IMG/VR virus record: IMGVR_UViG_3300048837_000975 | Location: 32,001 to 96,000 of that record | Strand: one strand, 5' to 3' | DNA from: a virus | DNA length: 64,000 bases | In this document: piece after piece, positions 18,213-53,662 of the stretch | Layout: each line of letters opens with the position of its first letter | Position numbering within the stretch: the first letter of the stretch is position 1 | Notes under the pieces: generated by a model | Told to the model about the DNA's origin: nothing | Seen by the model: only the letters and a program-made list of their open reading frames with translations | The model's database searches: none | Made by a program: the position numbers and the translations under genes

Positions 18213-19838
18213 ATGAGCCAAGACTGGATCGACATTGCGCAAGGTAAGTTTCGTTCTGGGGCGTTCCCTGAGGACGTTACCGTAGTAGTGCCTGATCCAG
18301 GTAAGCCAACTACAACTCCGCTCAAAGACGACAAGACAAAGAACAAGACTCCGCCGTGTGCTCTTCGCTCGGAAGAGGTAGTGCTAGTCGGGTGTATGTC
18401 CATTCCTGAGAGCATGGACGAGCTTGATGACCTGCTGCCTCAGCACTTCTATGACGTACGGAACCAGATCATCTGGGAAACGATGCTGGATCTCAGATCC
18501 AAGGATCTGGTTCCAGATCATGTCCAGATAAAGGCGAAGATCGAGGAGAAGGGGAAGACCCCACTCGTCAAGGAGTCGTATCTCAGCTACCTCGATGAGA
18601 TTCCGATCAACGCAAAGGTCCGCGAACACGCTAATATCGTAATAGCTAGGTATCGTCAGCGCGAATTGGTGAACCTTGGCAGGAGCATCGCAAATAATGC
18701 GATGACCCCTGCCGAGGACGTTCAAATGATGATCGAGGAGGCCGAGCGACTGGTCTCCGAACTTGCTCATACCAACAAAAAGTCTACACTTATCAGTATC
18801 GGAGAAGTGTACGACGAAGAGCTGCGGACGATCACCAGAGCTCACCAAACTGGTGAGTCCGCTACAGGTGTGCCTAGCGGCTTCGATGGCATCGATCGTC
18901 TAACCGGAGGATGGCACGCTGGCGATCTGGTAGTGATCGCTGGCCGTCCAGGATCCGGAAAGACCAGCTTCGTAACGAACACGCTGCTGAACATCGTGTC
19001 GACGCGCCTGGATGACGATGGCACCAGGTTCGGTGCTGCGTTTTTCTCTCTGGAGATGCCTCGAGCACAGATCGCCGTGCGTCTTGCCTGCTCCAGAAGC
19101 GGTGTTGCAAGCGAGAAGGTGCGTTTCAACAAGCTCGACTCGAGGGAGCTGGCGCGCCTGGTCAACGAAACCGTCGCGATGAAGCAGTTTCCGCTGTGGA
19201 TCGACGACACTCCGGCCATTTCGCTGCTTGAGCTAAGATCCCGAATAAAGACGCTCAAGCGGCAGGTAGACGCCGGAACTTCACGGATCGCGTGTAAGAA
19301 ACTGAAGATCGTAGCGGTTGACTATATTCAGCTGATGAAGTCACACGCAAAGAAGAACGAGAACCGCGACCGAGAGATCGCGCTCATTACGTCTGGACTG
19401 AAAGAGATCGCTAAGACAGAAGAAGTTTGCATCATAGCGCTCAGCCAGATGAATCGATCCATCGAGAAGGACAAGAAGCGTCGCCCGTGCCTGTCTGACC
19501 TGCGAGAGTCAGGGTCTATCGAAGCAGACGCGGATGCTGTTATGTTCGTACACCGCCCGTACGTAGGCGTAGACGAGGACAGCGAGGCTCCTGTCGATCG
19601 GGTTGAGCTGGTGATCGCGAAGCAGCGAAACGGCCCAACTGAGTCGGTTGCGCTTCGCTGGGACGGCAAGACTACGACCTTCTCTGACGAGGATTCTCAG
19701 CCTGGAAGGTACGTCCATAAGAGCGACTCGTACGCTGGGACTGGAAATGGCTTTGAAAAGGTGAGGAATGGTGGTAAGGTAGACTATAGGAAGCAGGAAG
19801 ACTACGATGACTTCGACATTCCAGAAGGGCTTGCCTAA
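18213..19838 (+). CDS. dnaB: replicative DNA helicase DnaB
   Basis: AGRPGSGKT, FFSLEM, VDYIQLM, ALSQMNR, SDLRESGSIEADAD, IAKQRNGP. Confidence 0.98.
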   Translation: MSQDWIDIAQGKFRSGAFPEDVTVVVPDPGKPTTTPLKDDKTKNKTPPCALRSEEVVLVGCMSIPESMDELDDLLPQHFYDVRNQIIWETMLDLRSKDLVPDHVQIKAKIEEKGKTPLVKESYLSYLDEIPINAKVREHANIVIARYRQRELVNLGRSIANNAMTPAEDVQMMIEEAERLVSELAHTNKKSTLISIGEVYDEELRTITRAHQTGESATGVPSGFDGIDRLTGGWHAGDLVVIAGRPGSGKTSFVTNTLLNIVSTRLDDDGTRFGAAFFSLEMPRAQIAVRLACSRSGVASEKVRFNKLDSRELARLVNETVAMKQFPLWIDDTPAISLLELRSRIKTLKRQVDAGTSRIACKKLKIVAVDYIQLMKSHAKKNENRDREIALITSGLKEIAKTEEVCIIALSQMNRSIEKDKKRRPCLSDLRESGSIEADADAVMFVHRPYVGVDEDSEAPVDRVELVIAKQRNGPTESVALRWDGKTTTFSDEDSQPGRYVHKSDSYAGTGNGFEKVRNGGKVDYRKQEDYDDFDIPEGLA

Positions 19839-20053
19839 CAATCTGATTGCTATCACCAGGTGGCAGTCAGGAGCGTGGTACGGGAAGGTATTCTTTCCCG
19901 ACGGAACCACGCAGTGGTACAAGCTCTTCGAGGGATCTCAGTGCAAGACGAACTCAAGATGGGCCTGGCGGAGGGCCGGTCAGATGATTCGTACAGTGCA
20001 GCAGTACGGAATCTTACCGCCCAGCAAGAAAGCCGATACGAACAAATAACGGC

Positions 20054-20365
20054 TTGCGGCTCGTTCGGACCTATGACAGCATGGGTCCTATGATCGACGG
20101 AAACTTCATTGCATTGAAAGAGGAAGCGATTCACCGGCTTAACCTGCCGTACGGAATCAACGGTAAGGACATCAAGTTCGCGCGTCTGGCGCTAGGCATG
20201 TCGCGCATCACCATCGCCTATGACCTTCGTATGAAGGTCGAGGAACTTAAGAACATAGAGATGTGTTTGGATCCCGTTCCGGACTATCTTCTTGATCACA
20301 TGAAGTTCCTGCTTGGAGTTCCGGAGCTTCAGGATCCCAGGGATGAGCTTGAGGAGGATATATGA
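20054..20365 (+). CDS. XRE-like helix-turn-helix protein
   Basis: GKDIKFARLALGMSR..IA..L.......NIE....PVP. Confidence 0.6.
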   Translation: MRLVRTYDSMGPMIDGNFIALKEEAIHRLNLPYGINGKDIKFARLALGMSRITIAYDLRMKVEELKNIEMCLDPVPDYLLDHMKFLLGVPELQDPRDELEEDI

Positions 20366-20640
20366 AGACATCCAAGCGCTTTCGCAAGAAGCGGGAGAAA
20401 CGACGACACCTCAGCAGGTGGTTCTATGTGCGCGACGCAGGAAGTCACCAGCGGTGGATGGCAGCTGGTGTTATTCATAAGCTTGTTGATTCCGAAAACG
20501 GCTGGACATACTCTTGGTGCTTGCGCGAAGTTGCTGACATGCTTCACGGCATTGATCTGTACCAGCGCACCGGAGATCGTGCTAGAGGGAAAGTCCTGAA
20601 GCGTTACATGGATGGGTTCCTGAAAGGATTAATGCATTGA
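20362..20640 (+). CDS. hypothetical protein
   Basis: ATGA overlap; GAGGAGG SD. Confidence 0.55.
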   Translation: MKTSKRFRKKREKRRHLSRWFYVRDAGSHQRWMAAGVIHKLVDSENGWTYSWCLREVADMLHGIDLYQRTGDRARGKVLKRYMDGFLKGLMH

Positions 20641-21107
20641 ATGTGTTCGCTGTAAATCTCGATCCAGTGCTCGCTGCTCGCGATTTGGCTAACCAGCATG
20701 TCGTGAAAATGCCGTTGGAAACCGCGCAGATGCTGTGCAGCGTGTCTGCACGCCACGGAAAGCCGGGTCCGTACAAGGCCGCCTACACGAAGCACCCGTG
20801 TACGCTGTGGGCTGGCGATAGTTACGAAAACTGGTACTGGCTAGTTCTTCACGGAATCGGCCTCTGCGAGGAGTACACCGCTCGCTACGGCAAGAGACAC
20901 GCTTCTCACGATGTGATCGAGTGGTGCCTAAGTGACGGGAGAATGCCAACCGATCACGGATTTACTCCATTCGCCCAGGCGATGCCTGATCAGTACAAGC
21001 GCACTGATGCAGTAGAGGCTTACCGCGCCTATTACATCGGCGAGAAGCTGAAGTTCGCCAAGTGGGAACCTCGCGCTAAGCGTCCCGACTGGGCAAATGG
21101 ATCCTAG
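20637..21107 (+). CDS. pyrimidine-dimer DNA glycosylase / DenV-related family protein
   Basis: MN.F....DP..AA..L...HVVKM.LE.AQML...HPCT.WA...EYT.RYGK.H...QAMPD.YK..DAV.AYR.YY. Confidence 0.8.
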   Translation: MNVFAVNLDPVLAARDLANQHVVKMPLETAQMLCSVSARHGKPGPYKAAYTKHPCTLWAGDSYENWYWLVLHGIGLCEEYTARYGKRHASHDVIEWCLSDGRMPTDHGFTPFAQAMPDQYKRTDAVEAYRAYYIGEKLKFAKWEPRAKRPDWANGS

Positions 21108-21303
21108 ACCACAGAAGCCGCGCAAGTACGTGGTTGTCTTTGACCATATATCAACGGTCAAGGCCGGGGACATGGTTGTGTGCCCGTCAAGTGGCTGCTG
21201 GATCGGTGTCGAAAAGGTCACAACCGACAGCGAAGGCAATATTGAGCTGACCTGGGTGGAAAGTCGCCCACCAGGATGCGACGGCTTCGTGGGAAGCCCG
21301 AAT

Positions 21304-21540
21304 CTAGAGCTGGCTGTCCGAAGACAGGCCCGATGAGGCGTCGGATACGCCCTGAGCGTACGCGTCCCCGATCGAGTCCTCTACCACTCTAGCCAAAGTT
21401 ACACGAAGACCTGCCATGATCTTGTTGATCTGGTCAGTCGTGTTCTGATCTGCCTTAGCAACAGCGTATCCCTGGCGCTGAGCTGCCTTGATCAGACTAG
21501 TTAAAAGCGAGTTGAACTTCTCTTCTTGCTCGTTAGACAT
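21304..21540 (-). CDS. small hypothetical protein, lone minus-strand gene next to the solitary CRISPR repeat
   Basis: AAAGGAAG SD; minus-strand promoter TTGACA-N17-TATGGT at 21670-21642. Confidence 0.6.
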   Translation of the reverse strand: MSNEQEEKFNSLLTSLIKAAQRQGYAVAKADQNTTDQINKIMAGLRVTLARVVEDSIGDAYAQGVSDASSGLSSDSQL

Positions 21541-21566
21541 TGTCCGGGCTTCCTTTGTTGTAGGGG

Positions 21567-21595
21567 TTGACTTTCTTAGCCATCAGCAGTATCCA
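21567..21595 (+). promoter_or_regulatory. sigma70-like promoter for the solitary repeat RNA
   Basis: TTGACT-N17-TATCCA, 6 nt before the ATTG at 21602. Confidence 0.55.
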
Positions 21596-21601
21596 GTATC
21601 C

Positions 21602-21621
21602 ATTGCGCTCCGAGGAGCGAC
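21602..21621 (+). CRISPR. solitary truncated CasPhi repeat (single repeat-guide unit)
   Basis: ATTGCGCTCCGAGGAGCGAC, 19/20 identical to the repeat core, with the change in the hairpin loop. Confidence 0.9.
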
Positions 21622-21714
21622 TAGGGCACCATATGTCAATGACCATACACTACAACATGTGCGGTGTCAATAAATTCTGTTGACTGTGTGTCAAGAACTT
21701 GGTACAAGTAGGCG

Positions 21715-22158
21715 ATGCGCGCTATCCGCCTGGTCCTCGGTCTGGCTCTAATTTCGCCGTTCGCTCTCGGTTGCTCCCTGCTAGGAGGGGTCGGCCCTGC
21801 TATTCCGACCATCGTTTCTGTTGTAAACGACGCGATGCTCATTCTGAAAACGATTGACGCGGCCGCTCAGGAGTACTTTCGCTCTCGAGAGGTGCCGGAA
21901 GATGTGCGAAAAGAGTACGTGCGAGCATACACGGCTGCTGTGGCAGCCCTGAACGCAGCAAATCACACCTTGCGAGGCGTCAAAAACATCGATCAGAAGG
22001 AGTACGACCGGGCTATTCAGGAGTTCCGTAGCGCATACGGTGGCCTTCGTGATTTCCTTGAGCAGTATGGTGTCATGCGCGACGACAAGATGTCTATCGG
22101 TGGAGACGAGGTGACTGTTCCTGTTCCCGAAGCCATCGAGTTCCGATTCGATGACTGA
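21715..22158 (+). CDS. lipoprotein
   Basis: signal peptide with ALGC lipobox; promoter TTGACT-N17-TACAAG-N6-ATG. Confidence 0.7.
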   Translation: MRAIRLVLGLALISPFALGCSLLGGVGPAIPTIVSVVNDAMLILKTIDAAAQEYFRSREVPEDVRKEYVRAYTAAVAALNAANHTLRGVKNIDQKEYDRAIQEFRSAYGGLRDFLEQYGVMRDDKMSIGGDEVTVPVPEAIEFRFDD

Positions 22159-22527
22159 TCCAATAGCCATCGCGGCAGGGTACGTCGCTGTAGCCGTCCT
22201 GCTGTCGTTAGTTGGTCGAATCTTTGAGCTTTTCCACTAGGTATGGTAGTCTCATGGAATGGGATCCATAGACCCGAGGCATGTTCCGTATCTAGCAGCC
22301 GCAATCGGAGCCACAGCTGCGATGCTCACTGGACGTGAGCGCACCAGAATCGACAATCTGTTGATTGGTGGTCTGTTCGCCGGATTCGCAGCGTACCGCG
22401 ATCCGCGAGCGACCCCAGGTTCAACGCTCGCCGTTGCCGCGATCGAGGGAATCATCTGGGGGGTAACCGACCGGATGGTTCCTGTGATTAAGGAAAAGAT
22501 CATGCCGAGCCACCCGCAGGTCTCTGC

Positions 22528-22923
22528 ATGACAGCCAAAATGACCCCAGGTCACGGGACGTGCGTTCGTCTCGAAGATCCGGAGTCTGGGTTGGACTTCT
22601 CCTGGACTGGAAAGTGTCCGATCCTTGGCGTTGGTGTGTTCGGTGACAGCTTCATCTATCTTCGGTGCGAATCTCACCGTGCGATCGTGGTGTTTAGGGA
22701 CAAGAACGACGCTCGGTGGACATACGAGGAGCACGTTTCCGGGGCCGGGCTCATGCCGTGTTACGAGGTGCGCTTTCTGATTGAAAGAGCAACAGAGCGC
22801 TTCCTGGAAACTAGACCGGCTCTTGACCTGGATCAGGGAGAGCATTCTGCCGAAACGGAATGTCACCGTCTCACAAGCGAGTCTGGCGACAGAACAAGGC
22901 TAACGTACCGCCCAGCGGGGTAA
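22528..22923 (+). CDS. hypothetical protein
   Basis: ORF in operon. Confidence 0.45.
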   Translation: MTAKMTPGHGTCVRLEDPESGLDFSWTGKCPILGVGVFGDSFIYLRCESHRAIVVFRDKNDARWTYEEHVSGAGLMPCYEVRFLIERATERFLETRPALDLDQGEHSAETECHRLTSESGDRTRLTYRPAG

Positions 22924-22926
22924 AAA

Positions 22927-23682
22927 ATGACACGAGAAAACGGCTGGTTACCTGATTTTGCTGACCGCCGAGACAAGCCACTGGCGGCCACCATCGAGAC
23001 CGAAGAGGAGTTCCCGGAGAGCTGCTCGCTGTCCATGCACGTTCCGTTCGTTCTGGACCAGGGCGGGCTCGGATCCTGCGTCGCTCACGCCGTTCTGTAC
23101 GCCACGATGGTAAACGATGCTGCGAACGGACGCCGAATCATGCCGTTCTCGAGGCTGTTCGCCTACTGGCACTCTCGGAACCAGCACGGAGACGCCAGCA
23201 AGAACACGGGGACCTATATCCGTACTCTGATCAAGGTACTGAATACGCTTGGGCGTCCGCCCGAGTCTGAGTGGACCTACGAAGGCGACCCAAAGAACGA
23301 CAAATTCACCAAGAAGCCACCGCTCACTGTGATGCTTTCGGCTTTCGACAGGAGAAAGGCAGACTACAGCCGAATTGATGCAGACGGAGAGGAGCGGATT
23401 CGCCAGATCAAAGCGTCAATCTGCAACAAGCGCCCGGTTGTGTTCGGAACTGGCATATCGTCTGAGTTCGCCGAGGGTAACACGCCGCCCGGAGGAGTCT
23501 GGCGCCTTCCGTCCTCTACCATTGGCGGGCACGCAATGTGCGCAGTCGGGTACAAGAAGACAGGTTTGGTGATTGTGAATTCATGGGGCCTGCTTTGGGG
23601 CGACAACATGGGGTACGCGACGCTCGACTGGGAATGGATCGCCGACCCGTCGACGCGCGACCTGTGGTCTATATCACTGTAA
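22927..23682 (+). CDS. papain-like (C1) cysteine peptidase
   Basis: DQG.LGSCVAHA; GGHAM..VGY; NSWG..WG..GY. Confidence 0.93.
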   Translation: MTRENGWLPDFADRRDKPLAATIETEEEFPESCSLSMHVPFVLDQGGLGSCVAHAVLYATMVNDAANGRRIMPFSRLFAYWHSRNQHGDASKNTGTYIRTLIKVLNTLGRPPESEWTYEGDPKNDKFTKKPPLTVMLSAFDRRKADYSRIDADGEERIRQIKASICNKRPVVFGTGISSEFAEGNTPPGGVWRLPSSTIGGHAMCAVGYKKTGLVIVNSWGLLWGDNMGYATLDWEWIADPSTRDLWSISL

Positions 23683-23729
23683 AATTATTCAGTTGACGCC
23701 AGGTTACAATCAGGGTATAAACGGTACTC

Positions 23730-24068
23730 ATGTGGTCCCGGTTTGTCCTGCTTTCCGCGCTAGCCGTTCCTTCTATCATAACGTGTCATCACGTGACGGT
23801 TGATCCGGATACGGTCGAGCCGAATCAGGTGGTTCCGGCGCCCCCATCTTCCGTAGCAACGGATCCGTGTTCACTAGCGTGCCGCAGACTGTATGACTTG
23901 AAGTGCCCAGAGTGGAAAGGATCGCCCGGGGGCGCATCCTGCTGGGATGTTTGCTTTTATACGGAGTCTAGCGGCATAGCGCATTTCTGCCCTGACGCTG
24001 TTGCGAAGATCAAGACCTGTGCCGAGCTTGATGAGGCTTTCTTGTCGTGCGAAAACACGGTGAAATAA
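23730..24068 (+). CDS. secreted Cys-rich protein
   Basis: signal peptide and multiple Cys; promoter TTGACG-N17-TATAAA at 23693-23721. Confidence 0.65.
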   Translation: MWSRFVLLSALAVPSIITCHHVTVDPDTVEPNQVVPAPPSSVATDPCSLACRRLYDLKCPEWKGSPGGASCWDVCFYTESSGIAHFCPDAVAKIKTCAELDEAFLSCENTVK

Positions 24069-49503: not shown

Positions 49504-50253
49504 ATGGCAAAAATTGTTTCTATTCGCGAGCGCGTTCATCAGCCCTTCTATGACCACCTGATCCGTACGGCTGGTATGGCGCAGGGCTCGGTCCAGGACA
49601 CGAACGCTCTGTTCACCTCGAACGGCGCGCGCACCGAGGCGACCACGAACTTGATCAACGGCGCGACGCTGCCGTCTGACCAGTCGCACGTGACCCTCGT
49701 GCTTCGCGTTTTCACGTGGTTCCGTAACCCCGTTCTCCGCGTTGCGGGTGCGGATGCTGGTGAAGTGGCTGGCAACGGCGATTATGACGATCTGGACGAG
49801 TTCCAGACCGGCGGGATCGCGGTCGGCAACGCTCCGGGTTCCACGAAGGACGTGTACCGTCTGGCGTGGCAGTCGAGCGAGCAGCTTCACTGGACGTTCG
49901 GTGCGGGTCTGAAGCCCAGCATTGACAATATGCCTACTTGGTACTTCCCGACGGGTGGCGGCCTCCTGTCGGACCTCGCCGGCAGCACGGACCTCGTGCA
50001 CCTCAACAACGGTATGCCCTCGCATGAGAGCATTCTCCGCCTCGGCCGCGCGGTGCTCATCCCCCCGCGTCAGAACATTCTCTGCACTGCCAAGATTTTC
50101 AGCCTTCCCGACGCCGGGAACGCGCTGGCGTTCGGCACGGTGCAGGGCAGCCGCAACATGCTGTCGCTCCGCGACAACCTGAACGCGGTCGACCTCGTGC
50201 AGAAGTGCGTGAGCTTCTGTATCGATGGTCTGTTCAGCCGCGACGTTCAGTAA
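49504..50253 (+). CDS. putative major capsid protein (beta-rich, single jelly-roll-like)
   Basis: 249 aa, no TM, alternating beta pattern (QPFYD...TNL..G.LP...FP.GGG...NG.P...IDGL.SRDVQ); strong codon bias; own promoter and terminator; the fold is inferred, not searched. Confidence 0.6.
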   Translation: MAKIVSIRERVHQPFYDHLIRTAGMAQGSVQDTNALFTSNGARTEATTNLINGATLPSDQSHVTLVLRVFTWFRNPVLRVAGADAGEVAGNGDYDDLDEFQTGGIAVGNAPGSTKDVYRLAWQSSEQLHWTFGAGLKPSIDNMPTWYFPTGGGLLSDLAGSTDLVHLNNGMPSHESILRLGRAVLIPPRQNILCTAKIFSLPDAGNALAFGTVQGSRNMLSLRDNLNAVDLVQKCVSFCIDGLFSRDVQ

Positions 50254-50280: not shown

Positions 50281-50316
50281 CGAAGGGGCTCCGGGGTTGA
50301 CTCGGGGCCCTTTTCG
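50281..50316 (+). terminator. intrinsic terminator hairpin after the capsid-like gene
   Basis: CGAAGGGGCTCCGGG-GTTGA-CTCGGGGCCCTTTTCG; a second small hairpin CTGTCGA-AA-TCGACAG at 50263-50278. Confidence 0.7.
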
Positions 50317-50324
50317 TCTACAAT
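50297..50324 (+). promoter_or_regulatory. sigma70-like promoter of the mini-array, embedded in the terminator
   Basis: TTGACT-N16-TACAAT, 7 nt before the first repeat. Confidence 0.7.
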
Positions 50325-50331
50325 GTAGAGC

Positions 50332-50570
50332 ATTGCGCTCTGAGGAGCGACATACAGAAGCTGACGCACCGTCGCAAATTGCGCTCTGAGGAGCGACATG
50401 CTGGGCTTCAGACCTGCGGCACCTATCATTCCACAAATTGCGCTCTGAGGAGCGACTAGAAGGGCTGATGAACGCGCTCGCGAATAGAATTGCGCTCTGA
50501 GGAGCGACAGCCGCGACGTTCAGTAACAGCGGATTTGCGCTCTGAGGAGCGACACTTGGTACTTCCCTAC
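50332..50570 (+). CRISPR. mini-array of five 5'-truncated CasPhi repeats with five self-matching guides
   Basis: core ATTGCGCTCTGAGGAGCGAC at 50332, 50378, 50437, 50489 and (19 nt) 50535; guides match 49518-50262. Confidence 0.95.
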
Positions 50571-50603
50571 ACACTGTAATCTGGAGTGGTGCAAAAAAAG
50601 TTC

Positions 50604-50632
50604 TTGCTCCGCTTCGCATGGGCTGCTACAAC
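50604..50632 (+). promoter_or_regulatory. putative cas12j promoter
   Basis: TTGCTC-N17-TACAAC with extended TG; ATG at 50642. Confidence 0.5.
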
Positions 50633-53133: not shown

Positions 53134-53662
53134 ATAGAAACCCCTACAAATTGCGCTCTGAGGAGCGACGACCGCCAAAGCAGCCAAGGTGCCAGCGCTA
53201 CCGACATAGAAACCCCTACAAATTGCGCTCTGAGGAGCGACTGACCACGGGATCGCTCGCCGTCGTGAACGGAATGATCATAGAAACCCCTACAAATTGC
53301 GCTCTGAGGAGCGACCCAGTGTTCGTGACCTCTACCGCCGTCTACTTTTGGCATAGAAACCCCTACAAATTGCGCTCTGAGGAGCGACTTGGTGCCAGCC
53401 TCACCACGACCGCCGCATCAGGCGCGATAGAAACCCCTACAAATTGCGCTCTGAGGAGCGACTGAGTCCACCCAATCACTATCGAGCATATGCCACTCCT
53501 ATAGAAACCCCTACAAATTGCGCTCTGAGGAGCGACCGCGACGAACGCAAAGAGCTTGTGGCTGCGGCCCGCCATAGAAACCCCTACATATTGCGCTCTG
53601 AGGAGCGACTTAGCTTCGCCGAGGATCTAGAAACCCCTACAAATTGCGCTCTGAGGAGCGAC
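53134..53662 (+). CRISPR. CasPhi CRISPR array, 8 repeats of 36 bp and 7 spacers (36, 38, 37, 38, 38, 37, 17 nt)
   Basis: ATAGAAACCCCTACAAATTGCGCTCTGAGGAGCGAC at 53134, 53206, 53280, 53353, 53427, 53501, 53574 (1 SNP) and 53627 (1 SNP); ATTG-hairpin-AC 3' end typical of CasPhi. Confidence 0.99.

Follow-up and report, generated by a model that had tools for sequence, protein, structure and literature searches.

Why should a phage that encodes a Cas12j (CasPhi) nuclease and two CRISPR arrays keep one further copy of its repeat, standing alone behind a promoter-like sequence about 29 kb away from the nuclease gene? The question is raised by the virus record IMGVR_UViG_3300048837_000975, a linear record of 125,690 bp estimated to be 78% complete, of which bases 32001-96000 (64,000 nucleotides) were analysed and are referred to here as the window; positions are those of the window throughout. 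The answer that is tentatively favoured, at slightly less than an even chance of being correct, is that the lone copy belongs to a guide-only unit that occupies the site it targets; the unit would arm the Cas12j of the phage against sister phages lacking the insertion and would leave the carrier itself spared.

The 20-mer at 21602-21621, ATTGCGCTCCGAGGAGCGAC, was one of 14 matches found in the window when up to three mismatches were allowed, against 0.01 expected from shuffled sequences. The other 13 corresponded to the five truncated repeats (50332-50553) and the eight full 36-nt repeats (53134-53662) of the two arrays, from which the solitary copy differed by one letter in 12 cases and by two letters in the remaining one. 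The sole change with respect to those 12 repeats was a C for T at 21611, within the 4-nt loop, a letter absent from all 13 array repeats; the 5-bp stem CGCTC/GAGCG is intact and folds. In CasPhi-3, the contacts that hold the handle together are U-18, G-17, A-2 and C-1 (10.1101/2021.06.27.449965), and all four were found as letters of the solitary copy when counting back from 21621. Since the contact positions are present and only the loop is changed, the 20 nt would represent a whole handle rather than a fragment, and judging from its sequence the segment is the complete 3' handle of the phage's own Cas12j repeat. The initial annotation of this DNA, which had described a solitary CasPhi repeat with a 5-bp stem approximately 29 kb from the cas gene, was confirmed in both respects (cas12j starts at 50618). 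It had also proposed a scan for more solitary repeats, and none was detected in the whole 125,690-bp record besides the arrays and 21602-21621, all 14 copies of the 19-nt handle core lying on the + strand. The solitary handle does not form part of a repeat-spacer-repeat array, the next copy being 28.7 kb away.

The 775-aa open reading frame (ORF) of the window matched CasPhi-3 (7odf, E 7.8e-133) and CasPhi-2 (7lys, E 3.7e-124) over nearly its full length, and its RuvC motifs IDLG, VEKLN and ADLNVA aligned with the CasPhi-2 and CasPhi-3 counterparts. These three motifs are taken by us to hold the catalytic residues. On the strength of these alignments, the cas12j gene is considered to be real and the nuclease intact-looking. 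The gene sits between the mini-array and the main array, and neither Cas1 nor Cas2 was found in the 125.7-kb record. All five mini-array guides (50352-50580) matched the adjacent gene at 49504-50253, with the flanks TCG, TCA, TCA, TTC and CCT, four of which conform to TBN (p 0.006). These matches to a neighbouring gene with TBN flanks suggest that the Cas12j system is aimed at the phage's own kind of genome.

The solitary handle ends a 61-bp segment that is an insertion absent from every relative seen, the right end of the insert being the last base of the handle. Five public runs, none of them recorded as RNA, hold small parts of the region 19500-24000, and the contigs of four runs were compared after alignment at 80% likeness. 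In the 8,546-bp contig of run X1, which covers 20599-21560, the next letter corresponds to 21622 (and the alignment continues to 22799), 61 letters being skipped and five letters fitting both sides; the same joint, 21560/21622, was found in a contig of X2. In a contig of X4, 21565 is joined to 21639 with 12 other letters between, and thus 73 nt are replaced by 12, again 61 fewer, and the loose end of a contig of X5, which starts at 21639, reads across the same joint. Moreover, the depth in the bin 21463-21613 was that expected from cover up to 21560 only. The short form was therefore present in four of four runs, and the 61 letters in none. TAGGG occurs both at 21561-21565 and at 21622-21626, where it constitutes the first five guide letters, and because of this duplicate the insertion can be delimited equally well in either of the two ways given in Table 1. 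Two candidate origins of the segment were rejected: a miniature transposon, given that the segment is present in a single copy and shows no terminal inverted repeats by eye, and an off-target integration by Cas1-Cas2, given that the duplicate is 5 bp instead of repeat-sized and that the record holds no Cas1/Cas2.

A sister lineage was also found to lack the segment. Relatives of the 78-aa protein encoded to the left of the insertion fall in three clusters, one of them 84% identical and derived from other sources. Three members of this cluster (P0007, P0005 and P0009) were called with 15 extra N-terminal residues, MVI(D/A/T)IWCP-T-TKEARN and then MSNEQ, the three extensions reading MVIDIWCPTTKEARN, MVIAIWCPTTKEARN and MVITIWCPTTKEARN, each followed by MSNEQ. 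On the - strand of the window, positions 21646-21623 translate to MVIDIWCP and those from 21558 downward to TKEART-MSNEQ, and one Thr codon, composed of base 21622 plus bases 21560-21559, would bridge the two. The two ATGs are 45 nt apart in the P0007/P0005/P0009 lineage versus 106 nt in the window, which implies that the sister lineage is short of 61 nt at that very place. Translation probably does not begin at the extension, since a ribosome-binding site precedes MSNEQ, and the extension was used only as a read-out of the relatives' DNA. What was seen of that DNA at the site came from joints, one loose end and the translations of gene calls, the displayed letters of X1 and X2 ending at guide position 5.

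These comparisons show that the apparent spacer at 21622-21641 is native DNA, contiguous with the left flank, and not an acquired spacer, which explains why it matched nothing else in the record, in viral_contigs or in genome_contigs. Across the 125.7-kb record the 20 nt had no second match, whether 12/12 was required, 16 with at most two mismatches or 20 with at most four; the guide 18-mer had 0 matches in viral_contigs and the 20-mer 0 in genome_contigs. The earlier statement that these 20 nt have no convincing match in the window can thus be extended to the whole record.

In the empty allele, the triplet directly 5' of the guide is TTG. The codons of the relatives fix T at position -3 of this candidate protospacer adjacent motif (PAM) and G at -1; position -2 is a wobble base, and on it, as on six wobble positions of the guide, the gene calls are silent. 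The PAM of CasPhi-2 is TBN. For CasPhi-3, the nearest relative with a solved structure, it is 5'-TTN-3' (10.1101/2021.06.27.449965). In this genome, TTN accounts for 5.5% and TBN for 19.3% of trinucleotides. The guide agreed with P0007 at 14 of 14 determinable positions, and P0005 and P0009 differed from it only at position 15, or 15-16. In the carrier, the 20 nt are preceded by the handle's GAC, not by a PAM, and no second copy offers a cuttable site. With the PAM separated from the target by the insert, the guide of the unit would recognise sisters without the unit, not the carrier.

Variation among the relatives was found at the guide itself. Over 92 residues, P0007, P0005 and P0009 differ at residue 4 only (D/A/T), which corresponds to guide positions 14-16; roughly counted within the 15 non-coding codons, the chance of this placement is about 0.03. 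In X4/X5, five of the 12 guide letters displayed are changed versus a flank divergence of about 12% (p about 0.008). Both patterns would be expected from escape, yet they are suggestive only, as non-coding DNA is more variable than genes.

The 11 letters at 21558-21568, which the initial annotation had described as the reverse complement of the missing part of the repeat, are indeed the exact reverse complement of AACCCCTACAA, a sequence with nine matches in the window at up to one mismatch (0.37 expected), eight of these in the main array. They are not a missing repeat part, since eight of the 11 letters (TTGTAGGG) are native, consisting of the PAM and the first guide letters, and occur in relatives without the unit; only GTT comes from the insert. 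For the same reason, the inverted 11-mer was rejected as a functional half repeat.

The junction also bears on the direction of change. An ancestral unit, formerly an ordinary solo guide or the remnant of an array, might have been lost by the sampled relatives' ancestor in one deletion from one TAGGG copy to the other, the PAM junction being a by-product. A single event would be enough, as for an insertion, a 5-bp direct repeat flanks the segment, and the comparison was made with no outgroup. Nevertheless, a deletion between chance 5-mers would have to remove exactly the stretch from the -35 through the last handle base and to create a TTN junction as well (5.5%), and at least three sequence types of the empty site were seen with no filled relative, for which reasons this loss is regarded as very improbable.

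The handle lies in a 174-bp gap between the 78-aa gene (- strand) and the 147-aa gene (+ strand). Ahead of it, TTGACT (21567-21572) is followed by 17 nt, TATCCA (21590-21595), 6 nt and then ATTG, an arrangement that is a plausible promoter for the handle. As the initial annotation had pointed out, the layout is that of the mini-array: TTGACT precedes ATTG by 35 nt here as at 50297/50332, and the stretch running from GGGGTTGACT through the last handle base measures 59 nt in the solitary unit and likewise in the mini-array's first unit. The two 29-nt cores match at only 4 of 29 letters. The unrelated core and the unit's own loop letter indicate that the unit was not copied from the resident mini-array and shares only its plan. 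In addition, a tandem of TATCCAG and TATCC was observed to form the -10 region of the insert (21590-21601).

The convergent promoter that had been annotated at 21670-21642, directed toward the 78-aa gene, was recovered as well: TTGACA-17-TATGGT (10/12) was the only site that the promoter scan listed in 20500-22800. Sites of the form TTGACW-N16-18-TA numbered 19 in the record, which is about the chance level by a rough estimate made without shuffles, so that only their clustering is notable: four lie inside the 174-bp gap, two per strand. By crude gene calls, five of the 19 are intergenic. The gap is a crowded divergent control region, and an 8-nt inverted repeat, TGTTGTAG and CTACAACA (21556-21563 and 21650-21657), brackets the guide in it. 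In the empty allele, the two arms would stand 25 nt apart around the promoter start of the 78-aa gene, and they may act as an operator or form a fragile hairpin where the insertion took place.

Such a setting suggests that the insert could be a cis-regulatory side effect whose likeness to a guide is incidental. It would bring a promoter toward the 147-aa gene, and would lengthen the leader of the 78-aa gene from ~34 to ~95 nt, providing it with an extra hairpin and an antisense partner. This would agree with the presence of 4 of the 19 TTGACW-N16-18-TA sites in this divergent control region and with the orientation of the strongest of the predicted promoters, which would produce an antisense transcript of the handle. 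It gives, however, no reason for an insert that ends at the last handle base or that keeps the contact positions, and neither strand of the unit folded better than shuffled sequences (z 0.12 and 1.12); on balance, it is considered improbable. No Rfam match was obtained in 21300-21900 at E up to 1. A coupling of the unit to the 78-aa gene as a toxin pair, which had been suggested earlier, found no support, given that relatives have the gene without the unit.

The shared plan and the unrelated core bear in turn on a different proposal, that the insert is an inert scar or escape allele. According to it, the first guide of a rival Cas12j cassette hit the site, the attacked site was repaired from the rival's array unit, promoter and handle being copied between PAM and protospacer, and the resulting uncuttable allele is now idle or untranscribed. 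This would explain the exact position, the 5-nt TAGGG duplicate, the shared GGGGTTGACT with its spacing, the unrelated 29-nt core and the loop variant; moreover, the record has no Cas1/Cas2, so that recombination is a likely route for moving units. Recombination between spacers and protospacers, involving phages and arrays, was reportedly described by Varble in 2019. Nevertheless, the matching Cas12j is present, so any transcript of the unit would load, and the scar needs a dead promoter; neither was a donor unit found, the module core (24 nt) having 0 matches in viral_contigs. A scar origin is in any case compatible with present use, and the scar and the guide-only unit differ in function only. 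The scar is the main rival to the guide-only unit and is rated as rather unlikely.

The initial annotation had further considered that the repeat could titrate Cas12j or act as a regulatory guide. The former corresponds to a decoy that takes up the Cas12j of the phage itself or of a rival, and the latter to a guide directed to a promoter of the phage's own that it matches in part. Solitary repeat units preceded directly by a predicted promoter are known in viruses, and some of these RNA anti-CRISPRs (Racrs) inhibit Cas complexes (PMC10651486). According to the same source, they have no cas association and mimic host repeats to block the host's Cas (PMC10651486). The unit resembles them in being a single repeat in a viral genome, behind what may be a promoter, but its repeat is that of the phage itself, which also encodes the nuclease (the record contains cas12j together with two arrays of this repeat), and its position would create a naturally targeted guide. 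In the CreA/CreR systems and the viral Cracr RNAs, a stand-alone repeat with guide-like sequence programs a Cas effector from outside the array, viral crRNA-like RNAs being able to reprogram Cas proteins (10.1101/2024.10.29.618823), and the unit would be alike in this respect. As described there, these RNAs target partly matching cas or toxin promoters (10.1101/2024.10.29.618823), whereas the record has none and the unit is far from cas12j.

In the 125.7-kb record, PAM-flanked partial matches to the guide occurred at chance level: 0 at 8/8, 0 at 10 with one mismatch and 2 at 12 with two mismatches versus 1.4 expected, none of them at a cas promoter. The idea that the guide finds a partly matching site of the CreA type within the carrier genome was not supported. 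CreA-type guides are flanked by two repeats. The unit has one, and in place of a position beside the cas operon it lies 29 kb from cas12j. Moreover, a decoy leaves the PAM junction unexplained.

Among 185,579 species genomes, none showed a host array with the repeat; the only match in genome_contigs (L013) is located inside a TPR gene. The repeat scan of metagenome_contigs gave three matches (L010, L011 and L012). Those in L010, which has the same sequence as L013, and L012 were rejected as lying inside coding regions, as was the only repeat match in viral_contigs (L009), which falls inside a GC-rich coding region. L011, a 1,096-bp metagenome contig otherwise unrelated to the phage, carries at 181-204 a lone copy of the last 24 nt of the repeat. 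It lies in non-coding DNA, some 90 nt ahead of an ORF, and follows ATAGAA and a 5' half that is longer and different. At least two genomes thus have lone handles of this family of repeats, and this second copy speaks for a decoy. Taking all this together, a decoy or regulator is held to be decidedly improbable.

Searches for relatives with the 147-aa, 78-aa and Cas12j proteins in viral_contigs, and with alignment A1 in metagenome_contigs, returned none. Among INPHARED phages no DNA match was obtained, and the protein search gave seven records with short TnpB-like matches covering 9-18% of the Cas12j query.

From the handle, the insertion polymorphism, an empty allele with PAM plus target and an intact-looking Cas12j, we infer that the unit is transcribed and loaded, that the empty site is cut and that the element is copied, as follows. 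A 61-bp module of promoter and handle would have been inserted exactly between the Cas12j PAM (TTG) and the DNA next to it. Its promoter would start an RNA at the handle and read into the native right flank, the transcript being a ready-made CRISPR RNA (crRNA) whose guide is the right flank of the insertion site. The phage's Cas12j, 29 kb away, would bind the handle, and the 3' part would be trimmed. Target-bound Cas12j trims long 3' guide extensions (PMC11797020), and hence a transcript running into the next gene should be no obstacle. The complex would then find TTG plus guide in a co-infecting sister and cut or block it there, at a site that would also be the start region of the promoter of the sister's 78-aa gene. 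Repair of the break from the carrier would copy the module into the sister.

The module itself may have originated by recombination with the first unit of another mini-array bearing this guide, with the spacer providing homology at the right side and GGG microhomology acting at the left, which would explain the TAGGG duplicate as well. Seen against this scheme, the earlier description of a pre-processed single crRNA was a fair reading as far as a complete handle behind a promoter-like site is concerned, but its spacer is native flank; likewise, the proposal that the RNA directs Cas12j to a promoter would hold for the empty site of sister genomes and not elsewhere. The broader claim, that Cas12j phages carry natural guide-only homing elements in the form of ~60-bp promoter-plus-handle modules that stand between a PAM and native DNA, make of that DNA a guide against any genome without the module and spread by repair, is judged rather improbable. 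If it were true, such modules would amount to a natural split gene drive among phages and to a living link from TnpB-style homing to CRISPR arrays.

Several observations weigh against a guide-only unit in its own target. TTGACT-17-TATCCA agrees with the consensus at 8 of 12 positions, its -10 TATCCA at 3 of 6, and the promoter scan omits the site; the better promoter of the region drives the strand opposite to the handle. A promoter with a bare handle, unlinked to cas12j, is found once in the record. A PAM would be expected beside a random insertion in 5-19% of cases, and the PAM alone is thus weak evidence. The D/A/T polymorphism falls outside coding sequence and could be neutral. In this unrooted comparison, gain here and loss in the relatives require one event each. 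In addition, two of the mini-array guides match the carrier's own gene exactly (at least 20 nt) and are TBN-flanked. Either Cas12j spares the carrier otherwise or the guides act differently than assumed, and the argument that the carrier is immune because its PAM is displaced is weakened as a result.

The nearest known parallel to flank-derived guides comes from the TnpB and IscB nucleases, whose omega-RNA takes its guide from the flank of the element, the empty site beside the transposon-associated motif (TAM) being cut (PMC13565253); Cas12 nucleases descend from TnpB (PMC13565253). The unit is like the 'restorative homing' of TnpB/IscB (IS200/IS605, IS607), in which the guide is the flank at the element's end and the cutting motif lies on the other flank, and both of these OMEGA features were found here. 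In both cases, the RNA would match only the element-free site and the carrier would be spared. Unlike in OMEGA systems, the nuclease of the unit is 29 kb away, the unit has its own promoter, and a CRISPR handle replaces the omega-RNA scaffold. Nor do the 61 bp contain an ORF, a transposase or element ends, whereas an OMEGA element has defined ends and holds nuclease and transposase within it.

A second likeness is to synthetic CopyCat and split gene drives, in which a guide gene placed at its own cut site is copied with the help of an unlinked nuclease (PMC5800851). CopyCat elements, as that source presents them, are engineered, work in diploid animals and use Cas9 (PMC5800851); the unit is natural and phage-borne, and its copying is something that we infer. 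Free-standing homing endonucleases of T-even phages are comparable too, in that a co-infecting relative without the element is cut and flanking markers are co-converted (PMC13565253). In intronless homing and marker exclusion in T-even phages, recognition is by protein and the endonuclease gene itself is mobile (PMC13565253). Phage and virus arrays directed against competing viruses (PMC7162821) resemble the unit in that the guide matches close relatives of the carrier and no adaptation module is present. They are unlike it in that here the guide results from a handle placed before native DNA, is not acquired, and would spare its carrier by means of the insertion. A literature search, which was non-exhaustive and excluded supplements, found no lone repeat that makes a guide against its own empty site; absence from print is thereby unproven.

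Solitary viral repeats are currently read as decoys or regulators, and in the present case it would be the position of the repeat, rather than an acquired spacer, that creates the guide; the same insertion that makes the guide would protect the carrier. If this is true, phage CRISPR nucleases would be usable in the manner of homing endonucleases, and phage arrays without Cas1-Cas2 would have a route by which to arise and grow. The unit would also constitute a natural counterpart to engineered guide-only drive elements. For this one guide, it would further offer a simple answer to the question of self-sparing that the neighbouring mini-array raises.

Table 1. Positions of the features discussed, in window coordinates.
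Feature	Position	Strand	Remarks
78-aa gene	21304-21540	-	function unassigned; present in relatives without the insertion too
TTG, PAM-like triplet directly 5' of the guide in the empty allele	21558-21560	+	joint 21560/21622; Thr-Thr codons
61-bp insertion, absent from all relatives seen	21561-21621	+	alternative boundaries 21566-21626
Promoter-like TTGACT-17-TATCCA, inside the insertion	21567-21595	+	predicted start at or next to 21602
Solitary 20-nt Cas12j crRNA handle (putative), repeat positions -20 to -1	21602-21621	+	hairpin CGCTC/GAGCG, loop C variant
Guide-like 20 nt, native DNA and protospacer of the empty allele	21622-21641	+	overlaps the start region of the 78-aa gene promoter
Promoter-like TTGACA-17-TATGGT for the 78-aa gene	21642-21670	-	10/12; would yield RNA antisense to the handle
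147-aa gene following the unit	21715-22158	+	relative at 88% identity
Promoter-like site and mini-array, 5 truncated repeats	50297-50553	+	first unit laid out like the solitary unit
cas12j (CasPhi), 775 aa	50618-52945	+	RuvC motifs align with those of CasPhi-2/-3
Main CRISPR array, 8 repeats of 36 nt	53134-53662	+	

Regarding the genes on either side of the unit, neither the 78-aa nor the 147-aa protein had a Pfam or PHROGs match above cut-off, and in the protein atlas only leads below 0.9 were obtained for them. A TTGACW-type site at 21681-21709 stops 5 nt ahead of the 147-aa gene's ATG; no clear ribosome-binding site was seen for this gene, and its message may be leaderless. The N-terminus of the 147-aa protein is signal-peptide-like and ends in ALGC (AAGC in the relative at 88% identity), which gives it a lipoprotein-like appearance by eye. 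Beyond two small genes downstream of it, a cysteine-peptidase-like gene was noted (22927-23682), and the genes around the 147-aa gene may form a lysis or exclusion cluster. In the X1 relative, three segments of this region (20471-20599, 22799-22888 and 22926-23038) are replaced by dissimilar sequence, equal or almost equal in length, their flanks remaining about 85-88% identical, and these segments look like small hypervariable cassettes in or between genes.

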